This document shows positions 7,738 through 49,089 of a stretch of DNA of 64,000 bases, piece after piece (position 1 is the first letter of the stretch; each line of letters starts with the position of its first letter). The DNA lies in the NCBI GenBank assembly GCA_965221695.1, contig OZ244905.1, positions 2,701,384-2,765,383 on the forward strand, in the 5' to 3' direction. The position numbers were made by a program, and so were the translations under genes. The notes under the pieces were generated by a model, which was given only the letters and a program-made list of their open reading frames with translations, was not told the origin of the DNA and did not search any database. The stretch comes from Gammaproteobacteria bacterium (GTDB lineage Bacteria > Pseudomonadota > Gammaproteobacteria > Eutrophobiales > Eutrophobiaceae).

Positions 7738-7822
7738 TCCATATCTTCTTCTACGGGTAACAGGGCGCCGGTTGCGCGCGCCCGGAATTCATTATTATCG
7801 ATCAGGACATAATGGTCTAATC

Positions 7823-8443
7823 ATGATGGTTGAAGAAAAACAAAATGCCGGCAACGGGGCAGAGCCTGTAACAAACGGGGGATCTTCCCCGGCTGAAGCA
7901 CGGTCAGAAGAGGAGATAACCGGAGCGGTACCCCTGGGTCAGGAGGAGGCCGGTGACGACCCGGACAAGATTTCTGAAGAGATTGCCGAACTCCAGCAGG
8001 AAAACGAACGGCTGAACCTGGAAGTCCGGGAACATGCCGACAACGCGTTGCGCGCCTCGGCGGAACTGGAGAATATCCGTAAACGCACTGCGCGCGATGT
8101 TGAGAATGCCCATAAGTACGCGCTGGAGCGCTTCCTTAATGAATTACTGCCGGTTATCGACAGTATGGAATTGGGCATGAACGCATCGCAGTCGGCGGAA
8201 GACATCGAGAGTTTGCGCGAAGGGATGGACCTTACCCTGAAGATGCTGCTCGACTGCCTGGAGAAGTTCGGGGTTAAAGCCATTGATCCGGCCGGTGATA
8301 AATTCGACCCCGAGTGGCATGAGGCCGTCTCCATGCAGGAACTGGAGGGCGCTGATTCAGGCAAGGTCATCAGCGTAATGCAAAAAGGCTATGAACTGAA
8401 CGGGCGACTGGTCAGACCGGCGATGGTAGTGGTTGCGAAATAG
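7823..8443 (+). CDS. grpE: Nucleotide exchange factor GrpE
   Basis: Acidic N-terminus, coiled coil and the RKRTARD motif. The start was taken at the ATG giving MMVEEKQ; the track ORF starts at 7772. Confidence 0.9.
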   Translation: MMVEEKQNAGNGAEPVTNGGSSPAEARSEEEITGAVPLGQEEAGDDPDKISEEIAELQQENERLNLEVREHADNALRASAELENIRKRTARDVENAHKYALERFLNELLPVIDSMELGMNASQSAEDIESLREGMDLTLKMLLDCLEKFGVKAIDPAGDKFDPEWHEAVSMQELEGADSGKVISVMQKGYELNGRLVRPAMVVVAK

Positions 8444-8532
8444 TGGGGTCAGATTATGGGGCCTGGGCAATATCAGTTTGGTATTTCTGGCGATTTCAGC
8501 GTTTCACCGAACCTTGCTGTGTCCCGCGTAAT

Positions 8533-8563
8533 CCTTGAATTTCGGGGTGATAACCCACACTTA
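8533..8563 (+). promoter_or_regulatory. Sigma-32-like heat-shock promoter upstream of dnaK
   Basis: ccttgaa-N14-cccacactta compared with consensus CCCTTGAA-N13-15-CCCCATNTA. Confidence 0.45.
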
Positions 8564-8613
8564 TATCTCTGGTAAGACAATAAAATTCTGAGCAATATAC
8601 AAGAGGCTTGAAC

Positions 8614-10542
8614 ATGAGCAAAATTATCGGCATAGACCTGGGCACGACCAATTCCTGCGTTGCCGTTCTGGAAGGCGGCCAGGCCAGGGTTATTGAGAAC
8701 AGCGAAGGCGGCAGAACCACGCCGTCCATCGTCGCATTTTCCGACGACGATGAAGTTCTGGTAGGGCAGTCGGCCAAGCGCCAGGCGGTCACCAACCCCA
8801 ACAACACCTTGTTTGCGGTCAAACGTTTGATCGGCCGGCGCTATGATGACAATGTTGTGCAGAAGGATATCAACATGGTTCCGTATAAAATCGTCAAGGC
8901 TGACAACGGCGATGCCTGGGTTGATGTAAAAGGTAAGAAGATGGCCCCCCCGGAGGTCTCGGCGCGCGTGCTGATGAAAATGAAGCAGACGGCTGAGGAT
9001 TACCTGGGTGAAAAAGTGACCGAGGCGGTGATTACCGTTCCGGCCTATTTCAATGATTCGCAACGCCAGGCGACCAAGGATGCAGGCAAGATCGCGGGGC
9101 TGGAAGTTCGGCGCATCATCAATGAGCCTACGGCCGCGGCGCTGGCCTATGGCATGGACAAGAAACAGGGCGACTCCAGGATTGCCGTCTATGACCTGGG
9201 CGGCGGCACGTTCGATGTATCCATCATTGAAATTGCCGAAGTGGACGGTGAGCACCAGTTCGAAGTACTCTCCACCAACGGCGATACGTTCCTGGGCGGC
9301 GAGGATTTTGACCTGCGTATCATCGATTTTCTGTGCGACGAATTCAAGAAGGACCAGGGTATCGACCTGCACAATGACCCGCTGGCCTTGCAGCGTTTGA
9401 AAGAGGCTGCGGAAAAGGCCAAGATCGAACTGTCATCCAGCCAGCAGACCGATATCAACCTGCCGTATATCACCGCGGATGCCGGCGGTCCGAAGCATCT
9501 CAACATAAAGATGAGCCGTTCCAAACTTGAATCACTGGTGGAAGACCTCGTTGATCGTACCATAGAGCCTTGCCGCGTAGCCCTGGAGGATGCCGGCTAT
9601 GCTGCAGCGGATATCACTGACGTCATCCTGGTAGGCGGACAGACCCGCATGCCCAAGGTACAGGAGAAGGTCAAGCAGTTTTTCAATAAAGAACCGCGCA
9701 AGGATGTCAACCCGGATGAAGCTGTTGCGGTGGGCGCGGCCATCCAGGCCGGTGTACTCGGCGGTGACGTGAAGGATGTGTTGCTGCTCGATGTCACGCC
9801 TCTCTCGCTGGGCATTGAAACTCTGGGCGGCGTGATGACCCGTCTCATCGAGAAGAATACGACGATCCCGACCAAGGCACAGCAAGTGTTCTCCACCGCG
9901 GATGATAACCAGACAGCGGTGACCGTGCACGTGTTGCAGGGCGAGCGCGAGATGGTCGCGGGCAACAAGTCCCTGGGCCGCTTCGACTTGTCGGACATAC
10001 CGCCTGCGCCCCGCGGCATACCCCAGATCGAGGTAACTTTTGATATCGACGCCAACGGCATCATGAATGTTTCGGCCAAGGACAAGGCCACCGGCAAGGA
10101 ACAATCCATCGTTATCAAGGCTTCCAGCGGGTTGTCGGATGAGGAAATCGAGAACATGGTCAAAGACGCGGAAGCCCATGCCGAGGAAGACCGGCAGGCA
10201 AAGGAATTGGTCGAGGCCCGCAACCTGGCGGAGAACCTGGTGCATTCAACGAAAAAATCCATGGAGGAACTGGGCGACAAGGTTGAAGAACAGGAGAAAA
10301 AAGACATCGAATCTGCAATAGCCGAGGTAGAGGAAACCGTTAAAGGGAATGACAAGGAGGCCATAGAGGAGAAAACCCGGAAACTGACCGAGATCGCGGG
10401 CAAACTTGCGGAGCGTGCATACCAGCAGGCCGCAGCGGCGGGCGCCAACGGTGAGGGCAAGCCCGCGGGCACGGATAACGGACCCGGCGATGAAAATGTC
10501 GTCGATGCAGAATTCGAGGAAGTGGATGACAACAAGAAGTAA
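8614..10542 (+). CDS. dnaK: Molecular chaperone DnaK (Hsp70)
   Basis: [18 protein letters not shown] start, and Hsp70 signatures throughout. Confidence 0.98.
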
Positions 10543-10562
10543 ATCGGCGAGAAATGCAGGTT

Positions 10563-11693
10563 ATGGCCGCAAAACGAGATTACTATGACGTTCTTGGCGT
10601 ATCAAAAAATGCGTCTGACGCCGATATAAAAAAAGCCTTCCGCCGCCTGGCGATGAAGTACCATCCGGATCGCAATCCGGATGACCAGGAAGCGGAGGAA
10701 AAATTCAAGGAGGCCAAGGAGGCAAATGACATCCTCAGCGACCAGCAGAAACGGGCGGCTTACGACCAGTTTGGCCATGCCGGGGTCAGCACTTCGGCCG
10801 GTGGCGCGGACGGCCAGGGTTTCAGCGGCTTCGGCGATATATTCGACAGTGTGTTCGGAGACATATTCGGCGCGCAAGGACGCGGCGGCCAACGCACCCA
10901 GTCCGGCGCTAACCTCCGTTACGACCTGGAATTGAACCTGGAGGAAGCCATTGCCGGCTCCACCATCAAGATACGGGTACCCAGGCTGATAAGCTGTAAT
11001 GACTGTTCAGGCAGCGGCGCCAAACGGGGATCGAGTCCGTCCCAGTGCCCTACCTGCAACGGCGCCGGACAGATCCGTATGCAACAGGGATTTTTCTCGG
11101 TGCAGCAGACCTGTCCCAAATGCCGCGGCAAAGGAAGCATCATCAATGATCCATGCCGCACGTGCAATGGGCAGGGCAGGGTCCGCGACAGCAAGACTAT
11201 TTCCGTAAAAGTCCCGCCCGGTGTCAATACCGGCGACCGGATACGCCTCACCGGCGAGGGTGAAGCCGGCGAGTACGGCGCCCCACCCGGCGATCTTTAC
11301 GTACATGTCATCGTCAAGGATCACGAGATATTTACCCGCGACGGTTCGGACCTGTACTGTGAAGTGCCAATCAGTTTTGCCGCCGCCGCCCTGGGCCGGG
11401 ATATAGAAATACCCACGCTGGACGGCAAAATCAAACTGCGCATCCCGCCGGAAACCCAGAGCGGCAGGTTGTTCCGCCTGCGCGGCAAGGGCGTGCGCTC
11501 GGTGCGTTCGGCTGCAAGAGGCGACCTGTTATGCCGCGTCGCGGTTGAGACTCCGGTAAACCTGAGCAAACAACAGAAAGACATCCTGGAATCCCTTGAG
11601 GATTCCATGGAGAACGATGAATCACGCTTCCGCCCTAAGGCCAGCAAGTGGTTCGACAGCGTGAAGAAATTTTTCGAAAACGCCAACCGCTGA
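10563..11693 (+). CDS. dnaJ: Molecular chaperone DnaJ
   Basis: J domain ([10 protein letters not shown]...HPDRN), G/F-rich region, and four CxxCxGxG zinc-finger repeats. Confidence 0.97.
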
Positions 11694-38276: not shown

Positions 38277-38684
38277 ATGTCCAGGATTCGTTGTTATAGT
38301 ATCGGTCGAGACCCCTCCGCATCCATCGTACTGCGTCATGAGACGGTGTCGCGCAGGCATGCAGAGTTGATTCCCGTATCCGGCGGGCAGGTATACGTCA
38401 CGGATTGCGCCAGCGCCTGCGGGACTTTCATCGATAAGGGCAGGCGCTGGGAGAGGCTTACCCAGGATTTCGTCGGCGCAGGCGGCAGGGTGCGTTTCGG
38501 CGAGGTTGAGGTCAGCGTGCAGAGTCTGCTGGCGGACATTGCCCGCTTGCCTGCCGGCGGTGGAACGGGTCCCGGCGGTTCGGCGGAGCCCGGCGGTACC
38601 CCAGGCGCCGATAAGAAGAAACATGTGGATGCCGGCCGCGGGGTCATGCGCGACCCGGAAACGGGCGAGCCGATTCCCATGTAA
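38277..38684 (+). CDS. Small FHA-domain protein with Gly/Pro-rich tail (operon gene 1)
   Basis: YSIGRDPSASIVLRHETVSRRHAEL...VTDCASACGTFI carries the FHA G-R...S-R-x-H...GT pattern. Confidence 0.75.
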   Translation: MSRIRCYSIGRDPSASIVLRHETVSRRHAELIPVSGGQVYVTDCASACGTFIDKGRRWERLTQDFVGAGGRVRFGEVEVSVQSLLADIARLPAGGGTGPGGSAEPGGTPGADKKKHVDAGRGVMRDPETGEPIPM

Positions 38685-38699
38685 TCGGACAGACAGACC

Positions 38700-39473
38700 A
38701 TGAACCAGAGAATGAGGATATTCATAGGGGCGCTGGGCGCGGGCGTGATCTTCATCGGCCTGCTCAGCCTGTTTTTCTCCGAAGGTTTCTTCGCCGACTT
38801 CCTGCTGGACCGGAATTCGAAGTTCATGCCCTACCCGGTCACGATACAGAATATCATGTGGCTGGTGTTCTTCATCGGGGCGGGAGAATTGCTGTCGCGC
38901 TACCTGCAGACGGACCGGGAAATCAGCCAGATCCGCCTGGGACTGTTGCCGGAGGACAGCACAACCCTATTGCGCAAGCAAGATCTGGGCGGCGTGTACC
39001 AGCGCGTCAAGGAAACCATGCACCCGGCGCCGGGCGCTGCGGAGGATTCCTATTTCCTGCAACGCCTGCTGTCCCGTTGTATCCTGCAGTTCCAGGTCAG
39101 CGGCGCCATTGATAAGGCAAACAACATGTTCAACTCCAGCCTGGAGTTGTTCCAGCACGAGGTCGAGCTGAGGTACAATGCCATTCGCTATATCGTCTGG
39201 CTGATCCCGACCCTGGGGTTCATCGGCACCGTGGTCGGCATCGCGCTGGCGCTCAGCAACGCCGGCAGCGTCGACAACTTCCAGGACCCCACCTTGCTGA
39301 AACAGCTTACCCAGAGTCTCGGCGTAGCGTTCTTTACCACCTTGCTGGCCTTGCTGCAATCCGCGGCGCTGATGTTCGCGCTGCATGTCGTACAAGGACA
39401 GGAGGAAGCGTCGCTGAACCGGATAGGGCAGTATTGCCTGGATAACCTGATTAACCGGTTGTACGAGACTTGA
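38700..39473 (+). CDS. MotA/TolQ/ExbB-family proton-channel-like membrane protein (operon gene 2)
   Basis: Predicted TM helices are present. The C-terminal block IPTLGFIGTVVGIALAL...LGVAFFTTLLALLQSAALMF matches the MotA_ExbB signature PxLGxxGTVxG...AxxTTxxGL. Confidence 0.7.
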   Translation: MNQRMRIFIGALGAGVIFIGLLSLFFSEGFFADFLLDRNSKFMPYPVTIQNIMWLVFFIGAGELLSRYLQTDREISQIRLGLLPEDSTTLLRKQDLGGVYQRVKETMHPAPGAAEDSYFLQRLLSRCILQFQVSGAIDKANNMFNSSLELFQHEVELRYNAIRYIVWLIPTLGFIGTVVGIALALSNAGSVDNFQDPTLLKQLTQSLGVAFFTTLLALLQSAALMFALHVVQGQEEASLNRIGQYCLDNLINRLYET

Positions 39474-39715
39474 TGGGGGTCGCCTGCGCGAGACAAATCG
39501 GCAGGACAGCCGATTTGCGCAGCGACTGCTGCCCGCAGGGTTGTATCCAGGGAAGGATGCAATGAGTGACGGAAGGAGAGAGGAATGACGGGTGGGTTCA
39601 AGAATGACGGTTAAGGGGCGAAGGGAGGTGTCGGCAAGTGGGTGTCGGCAAGTTGAACGCAGGGTGGTTTTCTGTTAAATTTTCATCAACCGCAACACCA
39701 GAAGGGGAGGACATC

Positions 39716-40375
39716 ATGCCGGTAAAACGCGATGCGGACGGGAACATCATAAAGGAACAGACAAGAACTACCGGAGTGGGTGATCCGGTGTTGCCGACCT
39801 TGGGGCGCTCCACTGTCGGCGCCACGGTCGGCCCCGGCAGGTCTCCCGAGACCAACCCCGGCCAGTCATCGGGTTATGAGGCCCAGACGGTGCTGGCAGG
39901 TTCGCCCCGTGTCGCGGAAGGGGAAGCCAGGACCCGGATCTACCGGCCCGGCAGGACGGGGCGGCAACAGCCGGAGACACCGGCTCCAGGTACGGGCGCT
40001 GAGGACGCGACGTCCTCTGCCATGGACGACCCGCCCGTAGGCTGGCTGGTCGTCGTCAGTGGGCCGGGACAGGGGAACTACATGGCCGTCGGCAACGGTT
40101 CGAATTCAGTCGGACGCGATGAGCGCGAGCGAGTGCGCGTGGATTTCGGTGACGAGTTGATCTCCCGCAGCGACCATTCAACGATCACCTACGATCCCAG
40201 GGGTAAGAAGTTTTACCTGCAGCACGGCGCCGGAAAAAACCTCACTTACCTGGAAGGCAAACCTGTCCTGGCGCCGACCGAACTGCCCGGGTTTTCCCGG
40301 ATCACGATTGGGAACACCGAATTGCTGTTCATCCCGCTCTGTTGCGATCAGTTTGACTGGGACGACTACACGTAA
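39716..40375 (+). CDS. FHA-domain protein with Thr/Pro/Gly-rich disordered N-terminus (operon gene 3)
   Basis: The ATG at 39716 is preceded by gaaggggagga. The C-terminus reads GWLVVVSGPGQGNYMAVGNGSNSVGRD...ISRSDHSTITYD...NLTYLEGKPV...ITIGNTELLF. Confidence 0.8.
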   Translation: MPVKRDADGNIIKEQTRTTGVGDPVLPTLGRSTVGATVGPGRSPETNPGQSSGYEAQTVLAGSPRVAEGEARTRIYRPGRTGRQQPETPAPGTGAEDATSSAMDDPPVGWLVVVSGPGQGNYMAVGNGSNSVGRDERERVRVDFGDELISRSDHSTITYDPRGKKFYLQHGAGKNLTYLEGKPVLAPTELPGFSRITIGNTELLFIPLCCDQFDWDDYT

Positions 40376-40384
40376 CAGGTCGTT

Positions 40385-41368
40385 ATGAATGCCCTCAAGC
40401 AGTGGGTGTCGGGAGAGCAGATCCAGGGAGACCGAAATTACCAGGAAGACTATTTCTCGCTCAGCCTGCTTTCCCAGGGCCGGGAACCTCCGGATGAAGA
40501 CTGCCTGCTGCTCGTGCTGGCCGACGGCATGGGCGGACATGCCGGCGGCGCCGTTGCCAGCGAGACGGTAGTCAAGGCATTCCAGGAGGGCTTCAACCGC
40601 GATGCAACCGGGATCGCAGAGCGTTTCAGCGCCGGCATCGACACCGCCAACAACGCCGTCAGGGAAAAACAACAGGCCGATCCGGAACTGTCCGAGATGG
40701 GTTGCACCCTGGTGGCCGCGCTGGTGGTCGGGTCGACCCTTTACTGGACCAGCGTCGGCGATTCCATACTGTGGCTGTGCCGGCAGGGACATTTGCAGAG
40801 ATTGAATGCGGACCATTCCATGAAACCGCTGTTGCTGGACCTGGTCGAATTGGGCAGGATGACCGAAGAAGAGGCGCTGAGCGATTACCGGATCAACCAG
40901 CTACGCTCGGCCATTTTCGGCGAGGAGGTTCAGCTGATTGACATGAACGCGGACGGTTTCCAACTGGAGAGTGGTGATCTCGTTTTACTGGCCAGCGACG
41001 GCCTGGAAACCCTGTCCGGGCAAAGCATGACAGATGTCATCGAGGCCCGCGCGGACGATGCCGATGAGATAGTGAACGCCCTGCTTGACGCAGTTGCCAT
41101 GGCGGGGGTGCGCGGGCAGGACAATACTACGGCGCTGGCGTACCGGGTCGGCCAGGGGCATGATTCACTGCACGGCGTACTGGCGGGCATCAGCACAGAT
41201 GACAAGGATGCCGTATTCGAGCAGCAAGTGAAACCCTCCCGAACCTGCGAGTTGCGCCCGGCACAGGAACAGGAAGCGCCGGCAAAGCGGCCCGGCATCT
41301 TCGCCCGAGCCATACATGCCTTCTCCGGTAGACCGGCGCGTCAAGACACTCGTGACGGGAAGCAATGA
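40385..41368 (+). CDS. PP2C-family Ser/Thr protein phosphatase (operon gene 4)
   Basis: RNYQEDY, LADGMGGHAGG, LASDGL and GQDNTTA motifs. Confidence 0.85.
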   Translation: MNALKQWVSGEQIQGDRNYQEDYFSLSLLSQGREPPDEDCLLLVLADGMGGHAGGAVASETVVKAFQEGFNRDATGIAERFSAGIDTANNAVREKQQADPELSEMGCTLVAALVVGSTLYWTSVGDSILWLCRQGHLQRLNADHSMKPLLLDLVELGRMTEEEALSDYRINQLRSAIFGEEVQLIDMNADGFQLESGDLVLLASDGLETLSGQSMTDVIEARADDADEIVNALLDAVAMAGVRGQDNTTALAYRVGQGHDSLHGVLAGISTDDKDAVFEQQVKPSRTCELRPAQEQEAPAKRPGIFARAIHAFSGRPARQDTRDGKQ

Positions 41369-43104
41369 CAGCAATACGAGCATTGATGTTGTGTGCGCTT
41401 CTGGTGTACCTGCCGGCAGGCAACAGCCAGACGACCGGTGATGACGCAGAAGCGCCGGCTGTTTCCTCTGCCACTGCACCCGCTGTGCCTGCTGATACGC
41501 CCGTGACAACGGAGGACCCAGCGCAAATAGCCGCCCCCTCAGCGGATACAGCCACGGCGATTGCCGCGGTTGTGCAGGTTCCCGAACCCGTAGATTTCAG
41601 TGCGGTGCGGCCCCACCTGGTGGTCATAAGAGAAGGGATGGACGCCGCCGCACGTCGCACGCCGGGATTCAGCATCAGCGACCAGGGCCATATCCTGACT
41701 TATTCCGGAGAATTACGCGCCCGGGAGTACTACCTTGTCTCGGTTGCAGGCGGTCAGGTCTTTACTGCTGCGCTGCTTGATGAAGATGAAGACACCGGCC
41801 TCATGCTACTGAGGATCGCAGGAGAAGGGCACGGCCTCACCGCCCTGAAGTTTGCCAGAACGACGCTGGAAGCCGCGGTGCCGCTCTATGCAGTACGGTT
41901 CGACCCGGTGCGGGCGGAGCCGTTCGTGCCCGTTCCCGGCACGGTCACGCGGTTGCCTGCAACGGATGAGGAGACACCGGCAATCGTGCATAATGCCCTG
42001 TTCAATACGGCGGCCGCCGGGACGCCCTTGTTCAACCGTTGTTACCAGGCGGTCGGTGTCAGCGTGCTGCAAAGGAAGGGCTTCCCGCCGAGAACTCTCG
42101 ATCCCCAACAACAGGGTAGCGCCATCTCCCTGGCGGCCTACTCGTTGAGCGTGATCCTGGCGTCGGCCAACCTGACCCTGCCCATCGCTGAGGCGGAGTG
42201 CCAGAGTGCGGAGGAGGAGGCGCGACTGCGGCTGGAACAACTTCAGCAGGAAAAAGAGGCGGAGCGGGCAAATGCCGAAGCCCTGGCCCTTGCCGCCGCG
42301 GAGGAAGCGCTGCGCAGGGAGGCGGTAATGAACCTGGAGCGGGAAGCAGCGCAACAGCAGCTTGAACAGGCGCGCCAAGAGAAAGAAGCGGCCCTGCAGG
42401 CGGAGCGGGCAAGTGCCGAAGCCGATAAGCGCCGTTTGGAAGAAGAAGCGCAGCAACAACTTGAACAGGCGCAGCAGGAGAAGGAACAGGCCCTGCAGGC
42501 ACAACAGCAGGAGAATGAACAGGCTCTGCAGGTGGAGCGGCAGGAGACCGAACAGGCCCGGCGGGAAGCCCGGCAGGCGACGCATACGGGGAAACAGATC
42601 CTGCTGTTATCGCTAGCGGTCGTCTTCGTCCTGGCGCTGGTCTTCTTCCTGGTCCTGCGCGCCAGGCGTAAACACCTGCAACGCGTGGAACAGGAAAAAC
42701 AGCAGTTCGCCCAGGACCTGGACAGGGCAGAGGCAGACCTGTCAGACGCCTCCGAGAGGGAGCAGCTACGCGCCGGCGCCCCCGACGTGTTTATCGAGGG
42801 TGTCACGCCGCAGAACGAGCGCATCGCCCTGAAAATACCCGGCGCCTCACTGGTCAAACCCTCAGGTGTCACGGTAGGCAGGAGTCCCTCCGAATCCGAG
42901 TTCGTCATCAATCACGAACAGGTCTCCCGCCGCCATTTCCGCCTCATGCTGGTGTCTGGGCAGGTGATGATCGAAGATATGGGCTCGACCAATGGGACCG
43001 TCGTGAACGGCGTGCCCCTCAGTCCCGGCGCCCGGCAGACGCTGGGCGACGGCAGCCGCATGCAGGTCGGGCGCGTGACGATGACGGTGCGGATAGGTCT
43101 CTGA
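41365..43104 (+). CDS. Bitopic membrane protein: signal peptide, trypsin-like (apparently inactive) periplasmic domain, repetitive coiled coil, TM helix, cytoplasmic FHA domain (operon gene 5)
   Basis: Signal MTAIRALMLCALLVYLPAGNSQ. The HtrA-like layout (GFSISDQGHILTY...DTGLMLLRI...AAAGTPLF) lacks an obvious His or Ser. QQLEQAxQEKExALQA repeats follow, then TM ILLLSLAVVFVLALVFFLVL. The FHA region reads VTVGRSPSESEFVINHEQVSRRHFRL...STNGTVVNG. Confidence 0.65.
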   Translation: MTAIRALMLCALLVYLPAGNSQTTGDDAEAPAVSSATAPAVPADTPVTTEDPAQIAAPSADTATAIAAVVQVPEPVDFSAVRPHLVVIREGMDAAARRTPGFSISDQGHILTYSGELRAREYYLVSVAGGQVFTAALLDEDEDTGLMLLRIAGEGHGLTALKFARTTLEAAVPLYAVRFDPVRAEPFVPVPGTVTRLPATDEETPAIVHNALFNTAAAGTPLFNRCYQAVGVSVLQRKGFPPRTLDPQQQGSAISLAAYSLSVILASANLTLPIAEAECQSAEEEARLRLEQLQQEKEAERANAEALALAAAEEALRREAVMNLEREAAQQQLEQARQEKEAALQAERASAEADKRRLEEEAQQQLEQAQQEKEQALQAQQQENEQALQVERQETEQARREARQATHTGKQILLLSLAVVFVLALVFFLVLRARRKHLQRVEQEKQQFAQDLDRAEADLSDASEREQLRAGAPDVFIEGVTPQNERIALKIPGASLVKPSGVTVGRSPSESEFVINHEQVSRRHFRLMLVSGQVMIEDMGSTNGTVVNGVPLSPGARQTLGDGSRMQVGRVTMTVRIGL

Positions 43105-43818
43105 ATGAACCGTTCATTGTGGTGCGGTTTGATATTTCTCAGCCTCTGGGGTCTGAGTTACCAGGGTGGCGCGGATATTGATGACCAGGAAGAACATTTC
43201 AGGGAGGAGCAGGGGGCGCAACAGGATCAGGAAGCCGCGCGACGGGAACGCAAGCGTGCCCGACAGGCAGAACAGGAGGCGCTCCGGCAACAGGAAGCGG
43301 CGCGCCAGCGCGTGGTTCAGCAAAATCTGTTCGTAACCTTGCTGGCTCTGTTGACCCTGCTGGCCTTGATACTGGCCTTGAGAAAACCCCGGCAGGCCAT
43401 TGTTTGGGCCGCCGGCCACGCAATCGAACCACTCAGTCGGCGCTTCAAACCGGCAGGGCGCTTGCCCGCGCCGGGCGCAGCCCGCGCCGGGACGGCAAAC
43501 GTCGTACTTACGGGCTTTGACAGCCGGGGCAAACCGGTGAATATCCCGTTGCCGGAGGAGGAACTGGATCGGAAACGGGGCGGTTTCACCCTGGGGCGCC
43601 ATCACCTGCTGGTCGATACGGCGCTGGACGATGACCGGATATCGAAGCGCCATGCCCGGTTCACCCGCAACGGTCACGGCTATTTTATCGAAGACCTCAA
43701 TTCGAGAAACGGCACTGTGATCAACGGTGAGCAACCCTGCGCGCCGTTCAAACCCATGCGAATCAGGCCCGGCGACACGGTGCGGCTAGGCGGCATGGAG
43801 TTGCTCGTATCGGCCTGA
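43105..43818 (+). CDS. Membrane-anchored FHA-domain protein (operon gene 6)
   Basis: N-terminal hydrophobic segment, a charged E/Q/R-rich stretch, TM LFVTLLALLTLLALILAL, and a C-terminal FHA (FTLGRHHLLVDTALDDDRISKRHARF...SRNGTVING). The ATG abuts the gene 5 stop. Confidence 0.75.
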   Translation: MNRSLWCGLIFLSLWGLSYQGGADIDDQEEHFREEQGAQQDQEAARRERKRARQAEQEALRQQEAARQRVVQQNLFVTLLALLTLLALILALRKPRQAIVWAAGHAIEPLSRRFKPAGRLPAPGAARAGTANVVLTGFDSRGKPVNIPLPEEELDRKRGGFTLGRHHLLVDTALDDDRISKRHARFTRNGHGYFIEDLNSRNGTVINGEQPCAPFKPMRIRPGDTVRLGGMELLVSA

Positions 43819-43831
43819 TTCGGAAGCGCCC

Positions 43832-44635
43832 GTGAGGCTACGCAGCAAGGAGATCAATGTCTTCAACATGTCCGCGCTGGACCTGTTCGCCTCCGCGCTG
43901 GGTGCGTTTATCCTTATTTCCGTGGTCTTGTTTCCCTATTTTCCCAACACCGGCGATTCCCAGGAACGGGTGGACGAGGTCAAGGCGCAACTGGCTGAGG
44001 CCAATGCGCGATTGGAGGAAACCAGCGCCGAACTGGAGCAGGTCCGCGCCCGGTTGAACCCCGCCCTGGAACAAGAACTGCAGGTCGCACGAGAACAACT
44101 CGGCGCGTGCCAGGCCCGACTCCGGGAGGCAGAGGCCGCGCTAAACGCCTGCCAGGTTGAACAGCGAGAAGTTGCATCATTGGATTCCGCGCTGGGCGCC
44201 TGCGAGAACCGCAACCGGCAGATGCAACAGGAACTGCAATCCTGCGAGAATGAATTGCGCAAGAAATTCGTGCTGGTCGTGATCAGCTGGGGCACGCCGG
44301 ACGATATCGACCTGCACGTGATCGATCCGCAAGGCCGGGAGTTCTTCTACGGGCGCAAACACATCCCCGGTTCCCTGGCAAAACTGGAAGAGGACAACAC
44401 CAGAGGTCCCGGCAATGAGATCTGGCTGCACCCGGCCGCGGAGCCGGGCGCCTACGAGGTTTACTACAAATATTACGATGGATCAACCGGCAACGTGCAG
44501 GTGCGCGGCGCGGCGCTGACGCCCCGCGGCAGGACGGAGTTGCCGGACATCACTCTGCGGTACGTGGGTGAGAAGCCCCTGGTGGCAACCATTTTCGTCA
44601 ATGAGGATGGCAACGCTGAGGTGAGGGCATGGTAA
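43832..44635 (+). CDS. Bitopic protein with MotB/ExbD/TolR-like Asp-containing TM helix, Cys-bearing coiled coil and C-terminal DUF2135 (YfaP)-like domain (operon gene 7)
   Basis: N-terminus MRLRSKEINVFNMSALDLFASALGAFILISVVLF (compare TolR SEINIVPLLDVLLVLLLIF and MotB ADFMTAMMAFFLV). The coiled coil has four xAC(Q/E)/SCE motifs. The C-terminus reads VISWGTPDDIDLHVIDPQGREFFYG...EEDNTRGPGNEIW...PGAYEVYYKYY. Confidence 0.6.
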   Translation: MRLRSKEINVFNMSALDLFASALGAFILISVVLFPYFPNTGDSQERVDEVKAQLAEANARLEETSAELEQVRARLNPALEQELQVAREQLGACQARLREAEAALNACQVEQREVASLDSALGACENRNRQMQQELQSCENELRKKFVLVVISWGTPDDIDLHVIDPQGREFFYGRKHIPGSLAKLEEDNTRGPGNEIWLHPAAEPGAYEVYYKYYDGSTGNVQVRGAALTPRGRTELPDITLRYVGEKPLVATIFVNEDGNAEVRAW

Positions 44636-44660: not shown

Positions 44661-44690
44661 TTGACACGATTTCCCAGGCCCCCTTAGAAT
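44661..44690 (+). promoter_or_regulatory. Sigma-70-like promoter candidate upstream of the kinase gene
   Basis: TTGACA (44661-44666), an 18-nt spacer, then TAGAAT (44685-44690). A perfect 9-bp inverted repeat, ccggtgaca-N11-tgtcaccgg, follows at 44700-44728. Confidence 0.4.
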
Positions 44691-44766
44691 ACGGTTTAAC
44701 CGGTGACACAATTTAATTCTGTCACCGGATTTACGGGGCAAACATAACAAACAAAGACGGCCTTCC

Positions 44767-47373
44767 ATGAACTCCGACCACCTGCATGCCCTACCGCCCG
44801 GCACGCGCCTTGAAGAATTTCGGCTGGAGGCGCAGGTGGGCGCCGGCGGGTTCAGCATCACCTATCGGGCCTATGACGAATTACTGGACAAGGTGGTGGC
44901 CGTCAAGGAATACCTGCCGCGGGATTTCGCCACCCGCACCGCCGGCAATACAGTGGCGCCCATATCCGATGCGGACGCCCGGGATTACCAGTGGGGCCTG
45001 ACCCGGTTCCTGGACGAGGCCCGCACGCTGGCCAGGTTCGACCATCCGCATCTCAACAAGGTGCGTCGTTTCTTCGAGGCCAACGGCACGGCCTACATGG
45101 CGCTGGAGCATATCCATGGCGAGACCCTGGCTACCCGGTTAAGCCGCGAGCGGCGCTTGCCGGAAACGGACCTGCTGCGCCTGCTGGAGGAAGTGTTATC
45201 GGGACTTGCTGTGATTCACGAGGCTGGCTACGTGCACCGGGACATCAAACCGGGCAACCTGATGCTGCGCGAGGAAGACGACAGCATAGTGCTGCTGGAC
45301 TTCGGCGCCGCGCGCCAGGCAGTGGGCCAGAGTTCCAAGTCAATCACCAGCATCCTGACACCGGGCTATGCCCCGATAGAGCAGTACGAAAGCAAAGCGG
45401 ACGCCGTCGGACCGTGGAGTGATATCTATGCATTGGGGATGGTGGCGTACAAGTGCATCAGCGGCGCGGGTGACGGGGAGTTGCCCGATGCCGTGACCCG
45501 GGCCCGCTCCCAACGCAAAGGGGGTAAGGACCTGGCGATGGCGGCGGAGGTGGGCCAGAGCAGGTACAGTGCGAAGCTGCTGGCGGCGATAGACTGGGCC
45601 ATCGAGGTGGATGAGGAGTCCCGGCCGCAGGGGGTGGGTGAGTGGAGTGAGGCGCTGGTGGGGAGCGGGAGCAAGCAACGAGCCGCCAAACCGGCGCCTA
45701 ATACAACGGCACGGTCTGCAAAGGCTCCGGCCACCGAGCGCCAGGGTATGAATTGGTACAGCATGGCCCTGACCGCGGTGATAGTGGTGTTACTGGGAGC
45801 GAGCGCCTGGCAGGGCTGGCGGCTGTATCAGGGGATGCCCGGGCTTGGCGTAGACGGCGCCGCCACGGCAGTTGAGTCGCAGGCAAACGCACAGGGCAAA
45901 GCAGAGTTAGCAGCAGAACCCTATGCACAAACACCAACGGTAACGCCAGAACAAGGCTCCGGGCCTGACGCGCCCACACTGGCCGCGCCGGTTGAGGAAG
46001 ACGAAGTCGCCCGGCTGCTGGCTGCAGCCGAAGCCGACTTGGAGGCAAGACGCCTGACCAGTCCGCAGGGGAACAACGCCTGGGAGAAGTACCGGCGGGT
46101 ATTGGGTTTATCCTCCGCGCACCCCGAGGCCATAGCGGGGATGGAGCGGGTGATCGGGAGTTACATGGACCTGTTCGGCGCTGTTCTGGAGCAGGAGGAT
46201 TTTGACCAGGCGGAGGGGTATCTCTCACGCATCCGCGACCTGCACCCGGATTCGCCACTCTTGTTGACGGGGAAAGAACGTTTGGAACAAGCCCGGCAGG
46301 CTCATGTCGAGCGGTTGGCGGAAGAAGAGCGCCTGCGCCAGGCCGAGGAAGCGGCGCGCCAGGCGGAACAGGAGCGCCAGCGAATAGCACAGGAAATCGA
46401 GAGACACTGGCAGTCCTTTGAGACGGCAATGCAGCAAGACAAATTGGACCGGGCGGAAGACAGTCTCAACCTCGTGCGGGAGTTGGACTCGGACGCGCCG
46501 GGGTTAGCGGATGCGGAACGACGCCTGTCACAGGCGCGGGAAGCATCCCGGCAGAAGGCGCTGCAGTATGCCGGTGAGATGGTCTCCATCCCTGCCGGCA
46601 GTTTCCGCATGGGGGACCTGACAGGCGCTGACGCTGAGAAACCGGTCCACAGTGTGCGAGTCGCGGCCTTCAGCATGGGCAAGTATGAGGTAACGGTGGG
46701 CCAGTTCCAGCGGTTTGTGGAGGCGACGGGGTACCTCACGGATGCGGAGCGTTATACGGACGGCAAAGCAGGTTGTTCTGTCTATACAACAAAAAGATGG
46801 AAGTACACCGAGGGCAAGAGTTGGCGCAATCCGGGGTTTTCAGTCGGAGACAAGCACCCGGTGGTGTGCGTGAACTGGAATGATGTGCAGGCGTTCGTGA
46901 AGTGGCTGAACGGCAATACCGATGGGGATTTCCGCTTGCCGACCGAGGCGGAGTGGGAGTATGCGGTGCGCGCCGGGAGCAGTACGAAGTATCATTTCGG
47001 CAATGATGAGTCACAACTGTGCCGGTTTGCCAGCCATGCGGACAGCGGGACGGATATTGATTGGAAAAACAAGTCCTGCTCGGACGGTGTGGGCGAACGC
47101 ACCGCCGAAGTGGGCCGTTACCAGCCGAACAGTTTCGGGCTGTATGACATGCACGGCAATGTCTGGGAGTGGGTGACAGATTGCTGGAATGAGAGTTATG
47201 TGGGCGCCCCGACAGACGGTAGCGCCTGGACGAATGGGGACTGCAGCCGGCGCGTCATTCGGGGCGGGGCCTGGGACAGCTCACCGTGGAACCTGCGTTC
47301 CGCGCACCGTTACGGGAGCTCCCGTTCGAATCACAGCTCTTATCTGGGCTTTCGCTTGGCCCGGGACAACTGA
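44767..47373 (+). CDS. Transmembrane Ser/Thr protein kinase fused to a C-terminal FGE-sulfatase (SUMF1/formylglycine-generating enzyme family) domain (operon gene 8)
   Basis: Kinase motifs GAGGFSITY, VAVKEY, HRDIKPGNLML, DFGAAR and TPGYAPIEQY. TM WYSMALTAVIVVLLGASAW. A helical/coiled periplasmic linker follows. The FGE domain reads MVSIPAGSFRMGD...FRLPTEAEWEYAVRAG...GLYDMHGNVWEWV...RVIRGGAWDS...LRSAHR. Confidence 0.85.
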   Translation: MNSDHLHALPPGTRLEEFRLEAQVGAGGFSITYRAYDELLDKVVAVKEYLPRDFATRTAGNTVAPISDADARDYQWGLTRFLDEARTLARFDHPHLNKVRRFFEANGTAYMALEHIHGETLATRLSRERRLPETDLLRLLEEVLSGLAVIHEAGYVHRDIKPGNLMLREEDDSIVLLDFGAARQAVGQSSKSITSILTPGYAPIEQYESKADAVGPWSDIYALGMVAYKCISGAGDGELPDAVTRARSQRKGGKDLAMAAEVGQSRYSAKLLAAIDWAIEVDEESRPQGVGEWSEALVGSGSKQRAAKPAPNTTARSAKAPATERQGMNWYSMALTAVIVVLLGASAWQGWRLYQGMPGLGVDGAATAVESQANAQGKAELAAEPYAQTPTVTPEQGSGPDAPTLAAPVEEDEVARLLAAAEADLEARRLTSPQGNNAWEKYRRVLGLSSAHPEAIAGMERVIGSYMDLFGAVLEQEDFDQAEGYLSRIRDLHPDSPLLLTGKERLEQARQAHVERLAEEERLRQAEEAARQAEQERQRIAQEIERHWQSFETAMQQDKLDRAEDSLNLVRELDSDAPGLADAERRLSQAREASRQKALQYAGEMVSIPAGSFRMGDLTGADAEKPVHSVRVAAFSMGKYEVTVGQFQRFVEATGYLTDAERYTDGKAGCSVYTTKRWKYTEGKSWRNPGFSVGDKHPVVCVNWNDVQAFVKWLNGNTDGDFRLPTEAEWEYAVRAGSSTKYHFGNDESQLCRFASHADSGTDIDWKNKSCSDGVGERTAEVGRYQPNSFGLYDMHGNVWEWVTDCWNESYVGAPTDGSAWTNGDCSRRVIRGGAWDSSPWNLRSAHRYGSSRSNHSSYLGFRLARDN

Positions 47374-47463: not shown

Positions 47464-49089
47464 TCACCGCATCGATTTTTGCAGTACCGAGAAGTTTCTT
47501 ACCCAAGGCTCTAGTTTGCGTATTTCATCGGGCAAATCATCTATAGCTCTTTCGGCAAGCTCATAGTCATGGTACAGACCATAAAACACGCGATAGTAAG
47601 TTATCTGCTCGATCTCGATCCTGATATAGGCAATCTGCTGTGTCAGGTTATTCTGTTTGAGGAAATTTAGCACACGTTCTTCACTGGAAAAGCTGGCCAG
47701 TTGCAAAGTGTAGTGATACGGAGATTGTGCGGCGACCCAGTCTTCCCGCCTGATAGCGGTCTCACCGGCGTCAGAGGCATCCTCGCCAGCCAACTCATCT
47801 TCATCGGAAATGACCTCGCTGGTGGTCGCAACCAGATCGGAAATGGCCTCTGGTACAGCCGCAATGTATTCCGCTGTCGCTGGTACAGGGCTGGTGTCCG
47901 CGGTCTCTGCAACAGTCTCCGGCGTTTCCTCCTCCGCGGCGTTCAGCGCGATCTCGGCGGTGTCCTCATCCGTCTGAGCAGCTACGATGGTCGGCGTTTC
48001 TTCGACAGCAGGCGCTGTGTCTTCTGCTTCAGTTGCCTCAGCAGCAGTTTGAGCAAGGCTGGTCTCCGCGGTCTCTGCAACGATCTCCGGCGCTTCCTTC
48101 TCCGCATCGAACAGTGCGGTCTCGGCTGTGTCTTCGTCCGACTGAGCGGCTATGGTCGGCGCTTCCTCCTGCGTGACGCTCAGTGCGGTCTCGGCAGCGT
48201 CCTCATCCGGCTGAGCAGCTATAATCGGTGTTTCCTCGACGGCAGGTACCGTATCTTCTTCAGTTGCCTGCGCAAAGGGTTCTGTTGTTTCCTGCATTGC
48301 AGGCGCTTGCGATACGGTCGTGTCCTCTTCAATATCGACATAAGCAAGTCTTTGTAAGCTTTCTTCTGCCTGTTGCAGACCCCCGGCGGCCGCGCGTTGA
48401 TACCATTTTTTCGCCTCCACCAGGTCCTTTTCTACCGCGTAACCATTTTCATAGTACACGCCCATGTTGAATTGCGCCTGTGGGACATCGGCGTCAGCGG
48501 CTTTTCTGAACCAGAGTAGCGCTACATCATAGTCCTGGTCGACGCTGTAACCGAAGGCGTACATGACAGCCAGGCTGTATTGCGCATTTCCGTTTCCCTG
48601 CTCTGCTGCTTGGCGGAAAAGCCGGGTGGCTGTTTCATAATCCCGGGTAATCTGCTCACTGCCGTTGAAGTACAAAAGGCCAAGGTTGAACAGCGCATCC
48701 GATTGCCCGGCCGCCGCGGCCAGCTTCCACCATTGCATGACTTTAGACGGGTCTTTTGTGACACCATCACCGTGCAAGTACTTGACGCCGAGCTCGAATT
48801 GGGCGTCGGGGTGCCCTTGATCCGCCGCAAGCAAGTACCATTTTACTGCTTCGGCAGAATCTGCGTTAACGCCATGGCCATAGTCATACATGAGGCCAAG
48901 CATTCTTTGCGCATCCGAGTTGCCGTCCTCAGCCAGTGGTTGCAGTATTTCGTAGGCTTTTTCGTAGTCTTTGGCCAGGTAGGCCTGTCTCGCCGTTTCA
49001 AAAGATTGCGCCAGCACAGGGCCGGAAAATACCAACCCCAATAACAGGAAAGGAATTAACTTGGTCAGCATAAACCGTATCTTTGACAT
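47464..49089 (-). CDS. Exported Sel1-repeat protein with acidic repetitive linker and C-terminal SPOR domain
   Basis: Signal-like N-terminus, about five Sel1 repeats (DAQxxLGxxYxxGxGVxxDxxxAxxWY), an E/T/A/D-rich repeat region, and the C-terminal YTLQLASFSSEERVLNFL...YYRVFYGLY. Confidence 0.75.
   Translation of the reverse strand: MSKIRFMLTKLIPFLLLGLVFSGPVLAQSFETARQAYLAKDYEKAYEILQPLAEDGNSDAQRMLGLMYDYGHGVNADSAEAVKWYLLAADQGHPDAQFELGVKYLHGDGVTKDPSKVMQWWKLAAAAGQSDALFNLGLLYFNGSEQITRDYETATRLFRQAAEQGNGNAQYSLAVMYAFGYSVDQDYDVALLWFRKAADADVPQAQFNMGVYYENGYAVEKDLVEAKKWYQRAAAGGLQQAEESLQRLAYVDIEEDTTVSQAPAMQETTEPFAQATEEDTVPAVEETPIIAAQPDEDAAETALSVTQEEAPTIAAQSDEDTAETALFDAEKEAPEIVAETAETSLAQTAAEATEAEDTAPAVEETPTIVAAQTDEDTAEIALNAAEEETPETVAETADTSPVPATAEYIAAVPEAISDLVATTSEVISDEDELAGEDASDAGETAIRREDWVAAQSPYHYTLQLASFSSEERVLNFLKQNNLTQQIAYIRIEIEQITYYRVFYGLYHDYELAERAIDDLPDEIRKLEPWVRNFSVLQKSMR

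Follow-up and report, generated by a model that had tools for sequence, protein, structure and literature searches.

Ion-driven complexes of the 5:2 type, MotAB, ExbBD, TolQR, GldLM and ZorAB, power very different functions of the cell envelope. The gene described here, gene 7, lies in a 64,000-nucleotide stretch of the genome of a Gammaproteobacteria bacterium of the family Eutrophobiaceae (GenBank assembly GCA_965221695.1, contig OZ244905.1, positions 2,701,384 to 2,765,383 of the forward strand), hereafter called the window, to which all coordinates refer. Our analyses suggest, with moderate confidence, that gene 7 encodes the B-type subunit of an undescribed ion-driven (proton) complex of the MotA/ExbB family, the A subunit of which would be the product of the gene at 38700-39473. 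We favor this interpretation because the gene 7 protein has a lone transmembrane (TM) helix bearing an Asp residue, because a MotA/ExbB gene is linked to it and the cluster contains no other candidate B subunit, and because the same C-terminal head domain is found on true MotB_plug anchors.

Gene 7 shares with MotB and PomB a single TM helix, inserted with the N-terminus inside (N-in) and carrying an Asp, a residue that is essential in MotB/PomB, as well as a neighbouring gene of the MotA family and a periplasmic domain that would fix the dimer. However, it has neither a MotB_plug match nor an OmpA-like peptidoglycan-binding domain (no OmpA match), a Cys-bearing coiled coil replaces the plug and linker, and no flagellar genes are nearby. 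By eye, the short basic N-terminus, the E-I-N-(I/V) motif and the Asp-bearing TM helix resemble those of TolR and ExbD, and the A partner has the three-TM layout of ExbB/TolQ together with the motif P-x-L-G-x-x-G-T-V; but no match to the ExbD model of Pfam and no hhalign signal with TolR were obtained, no TolA/TonB-like partner was found, and the periplasmic fold is a different one. ZorB is the sole model family matched by the anchor of gene 7, although weakly (E 1e-3 to 6e-5), and the A subunit weakly matches ZorA; in contrast to Zorya, the A subunit is without the long ZorA tail, ZorC, ZorD and ZorE are missing, and gene 7 is without a peptidoglycan-binding domain. The likeness to GldM and PorM is one of concept only, a dimeric B-type subunit reaching far into the periplasm from a 5:2-type motor, whereas sequence and fold similarity are lacking and GldM consists of globular domains where the stalk of gene 7 is a coiled coil. 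In function gene 7 would resemble MotB, TolR, ExbD and ZorB but, the weak ZorB matches aside, it is not recognised by the models of these families.

A further likeness is to the TerY-P triad, which comprises vWA, PP2C and Ser/Thr kinase proteins (PMC11090510). Here too, a metal-binding, adhesion-type domain, which is vWA in paralogs of gene 7 and TerD-like in gene 7 itself, is linked to PP2C and a Ser/Thr kinase; however, the vWA/TerD-like module would be periplasmic and tethered to a MotA/ExbB-type complex, and FHA proteins are added. The likeness is no more than a lead.

Gene 7 and its membrane anchor

Translation of the open reading frame (ORF) at 43832-44635 on the forward strand agreed with the protein quoted in a first-pass annotation, which had been made from the DNA sequence alone. 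Its GTG start is backed by the homologs, which have Met at the same position (MRLRSKEIN or MK.RSREIN); at E<=1e-3 we found 941 homologs starting at this position, and relatives of gene 7 are present in 359 species-level genomes. A contig from a gammaproteobacterial metagenome-assembled genome (MAG), CBDCSC010000001.1, matches the window, with a gene 7 protein that is 99% identical. The features of gene 7 and its predicted partner are:

38700..39473, forward strand: MotA/ExbB/TolQ-family gene, 257 aa, predicted A-subunit partner (PF01618, E 1.1e-10, 41.7 bits, cutoff 22.9)
43832..44635, forward strand: gene 7 coding sequence, GTG start, 267 aa, predicted B-type (anchor) subunit
43871..43939, forward strand: single N-terminal TM helix (aa 14-36) with invariant Asp17 (codon 43880-43882), from the structure model, alignments and the ZorB1 match
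43928..43960, forward strand: juxtamembrane motif LFPYFPNTGDS (aa 33-43) on the periplasmic side of the TM helix, from alignment A1 and the structure model
43961..44257, forward strand: predicted periplasmic coiled-coil stalk (aa 44-142), helix in the structure model with block confidence of ~61-84
44108..44110, forward strand: Cys93 (LGACQ), heptad d, kept in 28 of 30 orthologs at >=70% identity
44150..44152, forward strand: Cys107 (LNACQ), heptad d, kept in 29 of 30 such orthologs
44201..44203, forward strand: Cys124 (LGACE), heptad d, followed by Asn128, kept in 29 of 30 such orthologs
44243..44245, forward strand: Cys138 (QSCE), heptad d, the neck cysteine, 22 residues before DLH, invariant in alignment A1
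44267..44632, forward strand: C-terminal beta-sandwich head (aa 146-267), YfaP-type, with TerD-like fold
44300..44317, forward strand: DDIDLH motif (aa 157-162) in the second strand of the head; D158, D160, L161 and H162 invariant
44384..44419, forward strand: LEEDNTRGPGNE loop (aa 185-196), candidate Ca-binding loop; E186, E187, D188, N189, G192, P193, G194, N195 and E196 invariant

The structure model of gene 7, made by AlphaFold2 (AF2) with 44 homologs as input, had a mean predicted local distance difference test score (pLDDT, the confidence given above) of 78.8 and consisted of a TM helix (residues 14-36), an unbroken helix of 99 aa (44-142) and a beta-sandwich (147-266) with pLDDT >90. 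Because a short, positively charged cytoplasmic segment (MRLRSKE) precedes the single TM helix, it follows from the positive-inside rule that the protein beyond this helix, stalk and head, should be periplasmic. Searches of the whole protein, the head and the N-terminus against Pfam and NCBIfam gave only coiled-coil noise, with no DUF2135, ExbD, MotB_plug or TerD match; a PDB sequence search with family profiles likewise returned coiled-coil noise and no solved structure related by sequence, and 50,697 phage records contained no match.

A trait of B subunits that gene 7 shares is a single TM helix at the N-terminus in which an Asp, close to the cytoplasmic end, is conserved. Asp17 is invariant in the 44 homologs of alignment A1, and across the 34 diverse N-termini of alignment A4 both Asp17 and Phe11 are invariant; no further Asp-bearing TM helix was found among the other proteins of the cluster. 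The PADLOC model ZorB1 matched residues 6-70 of gene 7 (E 3.8e-4) and 21 of the 34 diverse N-termini (best E 6e-5), all weak matches, with ZorB models being the only families matched. In the juxtamembrane motif, P35, F37 and P38 are invariant and N39 and G41 nearly so; residues 36-42 were modelled by AF2 as non-helical with low confidence, and the motif may serve as a plug or neck.

The predicted A subunit and its linkage to gene 7

The product of the gene at 38700-39473 has the three-TM layout of ExbB/TolQ and the P-x-L-G-x-x-G-T-V motif mentioned above, which was all that BLASTP against TolQ returned, and it gave weak ZorA matches. In a set of 79 related loci, a homolog of this gene was present within 10 kb in 63, and in 13 a gap of 10-81 bp separates the end of the MotA-like gene from the gene 7 homolog that follows it on the same strand, an arrangement like that of motAB or exbBD. 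Kinase genes were linked in 61 of the loci, PP2C genes in 56 and FHA protein genes in about 50 (49-56 for co-oriented FHA/PP2C genes). For example, plasmid pRlBT01d of Rhizobium leguminosarum BT01 (NZ_CP125637.1, 155158-173889) carries a complete cluster with the same order of A and B genes, in which, counted within the locus (L082), an FHA gene (7778-8107) and a MotA-like gene (8182-8898) are followed by a Cys-free gene 7 homolog (9001-9738), together with PP2C and two kinases.

The head domain

The first-pass annotation had likened the C-terminal domain to DUF2135 of YfaP-type proteins, quoting the motifs VVISWGTPDDIDLHVIDPQGREFFYG, LEEDNTRGPGNEIW and PGAYEVYYKYY. All three are present in the translation and hold most of the invariant columns of the family, and the relationship to YfaP was borne out, although a match to the Pfam DUF2135 model was not. 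Specifically, the head shares 41% identity over 83 residues with residues 145-225 of E. coli K-12 YfaP, the sequence of which was taken from NC_000913.3 (pairwise BLASTP E 1e-13), and a profile of 22 family heads, run against about 6,600 sequences, matched YfaP 143-236 (E 2.2e-14). In addition, tblastn of gene 7 against 7.3 Gb of plasmids retrieved genes annotated as 'YfaP family' or 'DUF2135 domain-containing' (E 3e-6 to 2e-5). Pfam DUF2135 (PF09906; gathering score 22 bits) matched neither the whole protein nor the isolated head, even at E<=10, because this short model of 48 positions spans only YfaP 199-244, at the end of the structural domain, and the best-conserved motifs lie upstream; the motifs common to the two heads are SW, DxDLHV, D.xT.G.GxE and G.Y.VY..YY, mostly upstream of the PF09906 stretch. 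Related proteins with several head copies score 20.5-20.7 bits on PF09906. YfaP has DLDLHV as the counterpart of DDIDLH and LDMDVTTGYGPE at the position of the loop of residues 185-196. Outside the head the two proteins differ, YfaP being secreted, without a TM Asp anchor or coiled coil, and encoded in the run yfaA-yfaT-yfaS-yfaQ-yfaP, in which yfaS encodes an alpha-2-macroglobulin.

By Foldseek, the nearest fold to the head is that of TerD proteins, with query-normalised TM-scores of 0.68 and 0.64. In a marginal hhalign alignment (P 0.004) covering residues 7-55 of the isolated head segment, which starts at E141 (about 147-195 of the protein), and residues 23-85 of TerD, DIDLH falls onto TerD DFDLDA and EDNTRGPG onto TerD GDNRTGEG. 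A search for TerD homologs added little, since it returned only sequences sharing 86-98% identity with the query. By sequence the relationship to TerD is marginal, yet it agrees with the fold match. TerD itself differs in being cytoplasmic and about 190 aa long. Pan et al. reportedly described in 2011 the TerD motif GDN(R/L)TG(E/A)GDGDDE, a segment said to form the Ca-binding sites of TerD. This motif is only partly present in gene 7: the D-N-x-x-G-x-G core aligns with the invariant EEDNTRGPGNE, but the trailing acidic run does not. By analogy, D158, D160, E186, E187, D188, N189 and E196 constitute a putative metal site, which may bind Ca. The head of gene 7 is a member of the YfaP homology group, beyond the narrow Pfam DUF2135 model, with a TerD fold.

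The stalk and its cysteines

In the stalk region, matches to Pfam and NCBIfam were to coiled-coil families only. A heptad-like region of about 110 aa after the TM helix had been noted before; the heptad pattern holds, and its length as modelled by AF2, 99 aa, is close to that estimate. Read from the sequence, the a/d register moves by 3 residues between V114 and L121, and Asn128 occupies an a position between C124 and M131. In close orthologs (P0001-P0030), which are 267, 274 or 281 aa in length, the stalk lengthens by whole heptads of the TSAELEQ type with the register kept.

The four Cys, which the first-pass annotation had described as lying in similar local contexts (LGACQ, LNACQ, LGACE and QSCE), are at residues 93, 107, 124 and 138, with spacings of 14/17/14, and the protein has no further Cys. 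In a local register test all four fell at heptad d, each with a Leu three residues ahead. Of the 195 stalk Cys in the family, 131 occupy d, versus 10% of control polar residues (S/T/Q), and 118 have a Leu at C-3; consecutive Cys-Cys spacings are a multiple of 7 in 92 of 123 cases, where 1/7 is expected (binomial p 2e-51). Because of this heptad-d placement and these multiple-of-7 spacings across the family, the regularity of the Cys arrangement is far beyond chance. Cys at d, Asn128 at a and length changes by whole heptads agree with a coiled coil whose chains run parallel and in register and whose core contains the Cys.

Conservation of the Cys, proposed earlier as a check, depends on evolutionary distance. 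Orthologs of at least 70% identity keep all four in 28-29 of 30 cases; at 55-70% identity the first three are retained in 58-64 of 80 but C138 in all 80; and in 119 of 121 homologs the distance from C138 to the DLH downstream is exactly 22 residues. This check and the comparison with YfaP could each have gone against the first-pass interpretation, and neither did. Further out in the family, sequences carry between 0 and 8 stalk Cys: of 97 that represent 50%-identity clusters of the same architecture, 29 have no stalk Cys, 39 have two, 10 have four, seven have six, one has eight and 11 have an odd number. Even numbers thus outnumber odd ones by 57 to 11 among clusters and by 44 to 3 among species-level genomes, and the Cys occur as C-x13-C units, giving patterns such as 14, 14/16/14 and 14/16/14/16/14. 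Binding of heme or Fe-S by these Cys is unlikely, there being no CxxCH and no cluster-type spacing. Antiparallel pairing of two B chains is also unlikely, as both TM helices are parallel and d Cys on both chains would require non-canonical packing.

A widespread family of modular architecture

A profile search of 1.84 billion cluster representatives yielded 2,996 head-bearing proteins at E<=1e-3, including 442 at E<=1e-10. Most of the best 150 head-bearing clusters are 190-290 aa long with the same N-terminal anchor, so that the fusion of this head to a stator-type anchor, which had seemed unfamiliar in the first-pass annotation, is the dominant architecture among the closest relatives. In three proteins, P0204, P0252 and P0268, the same head follows a true MotB_plug N-terminus (E 1e-14 to 8e-33, above the Pfam threshold). 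Other heads are found with a trypsin domain, with a caspase domain and four head copies, in an anchor-head-M15 peptidase arrangement, and in several copies in zinc-ribbon and C-type lectin proteins. In paralogs from Latescibacterota (L066-L079), the same Asp-bearing anchor and a Cys-free coiled coil of the EKAKLEQ type are followed by a vWA head in place of the YfaP-like one; examples are L066:10001-10921 and L075:9020-9967 and 10001-10951, with tandem pairs in L075 and L076. The vWA-headed paralogs, the MotB_plug-anchored heads and the other fusions therefore point to a modular architecture of anchor, stalk of 10-275 residues and exchangeable binding head. These paralogs also bear on the earlier remark that the domain travels with vWA systems: the window cluster, searched with Pfam, has no A2M, VIT or vWA gene, but a vWA head is present on paralogs that share the anchor of gene 7.

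Host groups include Gammaproteobacteria, Alphaproteobacteria, Binatia, Latescibacterota, Acidobacteriota, Campylobacterota and Planctomycetota. None of eight homolog clusters checked in their source databases was named, and the family is also nameless in Pfam and NCBIfam. It is not described in the literature covered, on DUF2135, YfaP, TerD with MotB, ExbB with FHA and PP2C, and surveys of MotAB, ExbBD, TolQR, ZorAB and GldLM; for example, a 2025 mBio survey of MotAB homologs lumps the non-flagellar ones together with no mention of the gene 7 family. Proteins combining a stator anchor with a YfaP-like head thus constitute a family that is widespread and without a name, and their genes are linked to those for FHA proteins, PP2C and Ser/Thr kinases.

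A model for the complex and its alternatives

In the model that we favor, gene 7 would insert N-in and two of its TM helices would lie inside a ring of A subunits, with the A5B2 stoichiometry and the role of Asp17 as the proton-carrying residue taken from the analogy with 5:2 motors. In the periplasm, about 100 residues from each of two chains would form, again by analogy, a parallel in-register coiled coil of roughly 15 nm. Given the position of the four core-d Cys and the oxidising compartment, symmetric interchain disulfides may staple and stiffen this stalk. It would be tipped with two YfaP-type, TerD-like heads that expose a conserved acidic DxD...EEDN.xG.GxE surface; these heads probably bind Ca2+ and attach the dimer to some partner in the periplasm or envelope. 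Since paralogs swap in a vWA domain, the head would act as an exchangeable binding module. Gene linkage suggests that the FHA proteins, PP2C and Ser/Thr kinase probably gate assembly or output via threonine phosphorylation. The computed support for the B-subunit assignment comprises the anchor features, the gene linkage, the helix with its heptad pattern, the homology and fold of the head, and the recurrence of the head on MotB-type anchors. The full picture of a new envelope machine, a proton-driven rotary unit with a stapled coiled-coil shaft and exchangeable metal-dependent heads (YfaP/TerD-like or vWA) that is switched by kinase, PP2C and FHA proteins, is put forward only tentatively.

Several observations weigh against this model. 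The anchor has no Pfam or NCBIfam match to the ExbD, TolR or MotB models, including MotB_plug, hhalign of the family against E. coli TolR gives no signal, and the ZorB matches are weak. No MotA-like gene is within reach in 16 of the 79 loci, and at least six of these, which have long flanks and come from SAR86-type bacteria and relatives, appear to hold orphan gene 7 homologs. In the stalk, the strong preference for even Cys numbers is not something that symmetric interchain bonds would require, and it hints that the Cys pair in some other way. Linkers range from 10 to 275 residues, and about 30% of clusters lack stalk Cys; the family can therefore dispense with a long stalk and with disulfides alike. 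The TerD link of the head is marginal as well: thin profiles, including hhalign against a 3-sequence TerD alignment, gave no head-TerD match, Pfam TerD (PF02342) did not match, and the deeper head profile reached a probability of only 8% in hhalign (P 0.004) over 48 columns, with the motifs in register.

The same complex might operate with the B dimer as its moving part, the stapled coiled coil being a drive shaft that, like GldM/PorM in GldLM motors, transmits rotation or force from the inner membrane to whatever the heads grasp in the periplasm or at the outer membrane, while cytoplasmic FHA proteins keep the A ring still. We regard this as unlikely. A long stalk that is predicted to be rigid, with staples at core positions, and an exchangeable binding-module head would suit a shaft, and several membrane-anchored FHA proteins could immobilise the A ring, but members with 10-12-residue linkers possess no shaft, Pfam, NCBIfam, PDB-sequence and Foldseek searches revealed no similarity to GldM or PorM, and the data do not discriminate a rotor from a stator. 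It is possible, though rather doubtful, that the stalk Cys pair within one chain, in a hairpin joining twin C-x13-C units (C93-C138 and C107-C124), or act as a redox or metal sensor altering the shape of the stalk. The prevalence of even Cys numbers and the recurrence of C-x13-C units would agree with such a scheme, as would the symmetry of the 14/17/14 pattern of gene 7 about a Ser/Asp/Gly-rich segment, where some homologs have Pro. However, the AF2 helix 44-142 is unbroken, with no hairpin, many patterns are asymmetric (e.g. 44/14/24 and 21/16/45), a hairpin could not be stapled in members with two Cys, a 14-residue spacing along a single helix puts two Cys out of bonding distance, and the common core heptad position of all Cys suits parallel d-d' pairs.

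Gene 7 could also stand outside any motor, as a membrane-anchored periplasmic adaptor or co-sensor of a Ser/Thr-kinase pathway, with the TM Asp serving for helix packing only. The orphan copies without a MotA-like neighbour, the lack of an ExbD or MotB match in Pfam and the linkage of kinase, PP2C and FHA genes at about the same frequency as the MotA-like gene speak for an adaptor; yet an invariant Asp in a lone TM helix beside a MotA/ExbB-family gene is the signature of a B subunit, the same head occurs on true MotB_plug anchors, and the cluster offers no other candidate for this subunit, making an adaptor distinctly unlikely. We consider it very unlikely that the cluster serves in anti-phage defence or conflict, as a system like Zorya or TerY-P with gene 7 as its ZorB-type envelope sensor. 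ZorA and ZorB are the best matches of the two subunits in the model library, but every Zor match is far below the family thresholds, the A subunit, of 257 aa, is without the long ZorA tail, and the cluster has no ZorC, ZorD, ZorE or nuclease. Although the kinase matches defence kinases such as PD-T4-6, these matches are generic for the kinase fold. Known defence modules include triads of vWA, PP2C and kinase (TerY-P; PMC11090510), caspase, trypsin and lectin domains accompany the head in other proteins, and several genomes have two copies of the system, whereas the 50,697 phage records contained no match.

Other genes of the cluster

The genes surrounding gene 7 and the predicted A-subunit gene, as assigned with Pfam, are:

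38277-38684, forward strand: FHA gene
39638-40375, forward strand: FHA gene
40385-41368, forward strand: PP2C gene
41365-43104, forward strand: gene for a protein with trypsin-like domain, coiled coil, TM segment and FHA domain
43105-43818, forward strand: gene for a protein with TM segment and FHA domain
44767..47373, forward strand: Ser/Thr kinase gene, with TM segment and C-terminal FGE-sulfatase-type domain (Pkinase E 1.7e-31, FGE-sulfatase E 1.1e-67)

The products of 41365-43104 and 43105-43818 are membrane-anchored FHA proteins with periplasmic coiled coils, the former having a Cys in an AECQS context that resembles the Cys motifs of gene 7. The length of the gene 7 stalk and the periplasmic length of the linked TM-FHA proteins gave a Spearman correlation of 0.30 (p 0.07), a value that, with so crude a measure, is of no use. 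The kinase contains a long helical region, and its FGE-sulfatase-type domain, of C-type-lectin fold, is probably periplasmic; the high scores that the kinase obtains with models of defence kinases, PD-T4-6 among them, are of the generic kind noted above. No terminator follows gene 7. The gap before the kinase gene contains, at 44661-44728, a near-consensus sigma-70 promoter (TTGACA-18-TAGAAT, 11/12) and, after it, a palindrome (CCGGTGACACAATT/AATTCTGTCACCGG, arms of 14 nt) that is located 39 nt ahead of the start of the kinase gene and looks like an operator. Downstream, an ORF on the reverse strand (47464-49089) encodes a protein with a signal peptide, repeats that by eye are Sel1-like, and a long repetitive stretch that is acidic and rich in Thr, Glu and Ala.

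Among the related loci, four from SAR86-type and related MAGs (L015, L016, L018 and L019) have no MotA-like, FHA, PP2C or kinase gene near the gene 7 homolog despite long flanks. Two copies of the system per genome were observed in OZ244744.1 (L009 and L041), OZ241358.1 (L017 and L031) and CBDFGK010000003.1 (L030 and L038), with one pair about 30 kb apart.

Implications

Each newly characterised output module of a 5:2 complex has uncovered new biology, and the gene 7 family, widespread and unannotated, has a predicted function of this kind. Our findings tie the YfaP/DUF2135 domain of E. coli to the TerD fold and to stator-type anchors, and both to Ser/Thr phosphosignalling. The Cys at core positions provide a simple experimental handle on how the stalk of a B subunit is built, and cultured hosts exist, among them Rhizobium leguminosarum, which is genetically tractable, Nitrincola alkalisediminis JCM 19317, Thiomicrospira microaerophila ASL8-2 and Hansschlegelia beijingensis DSM 25481. 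If the tentative picture of a new envelope machine is true, the system would be the first case of a 5:2 motor gated by threonine phosphorylation, and the orphan DUF2135/YfaP domain would for the first time be placed in a functional context.

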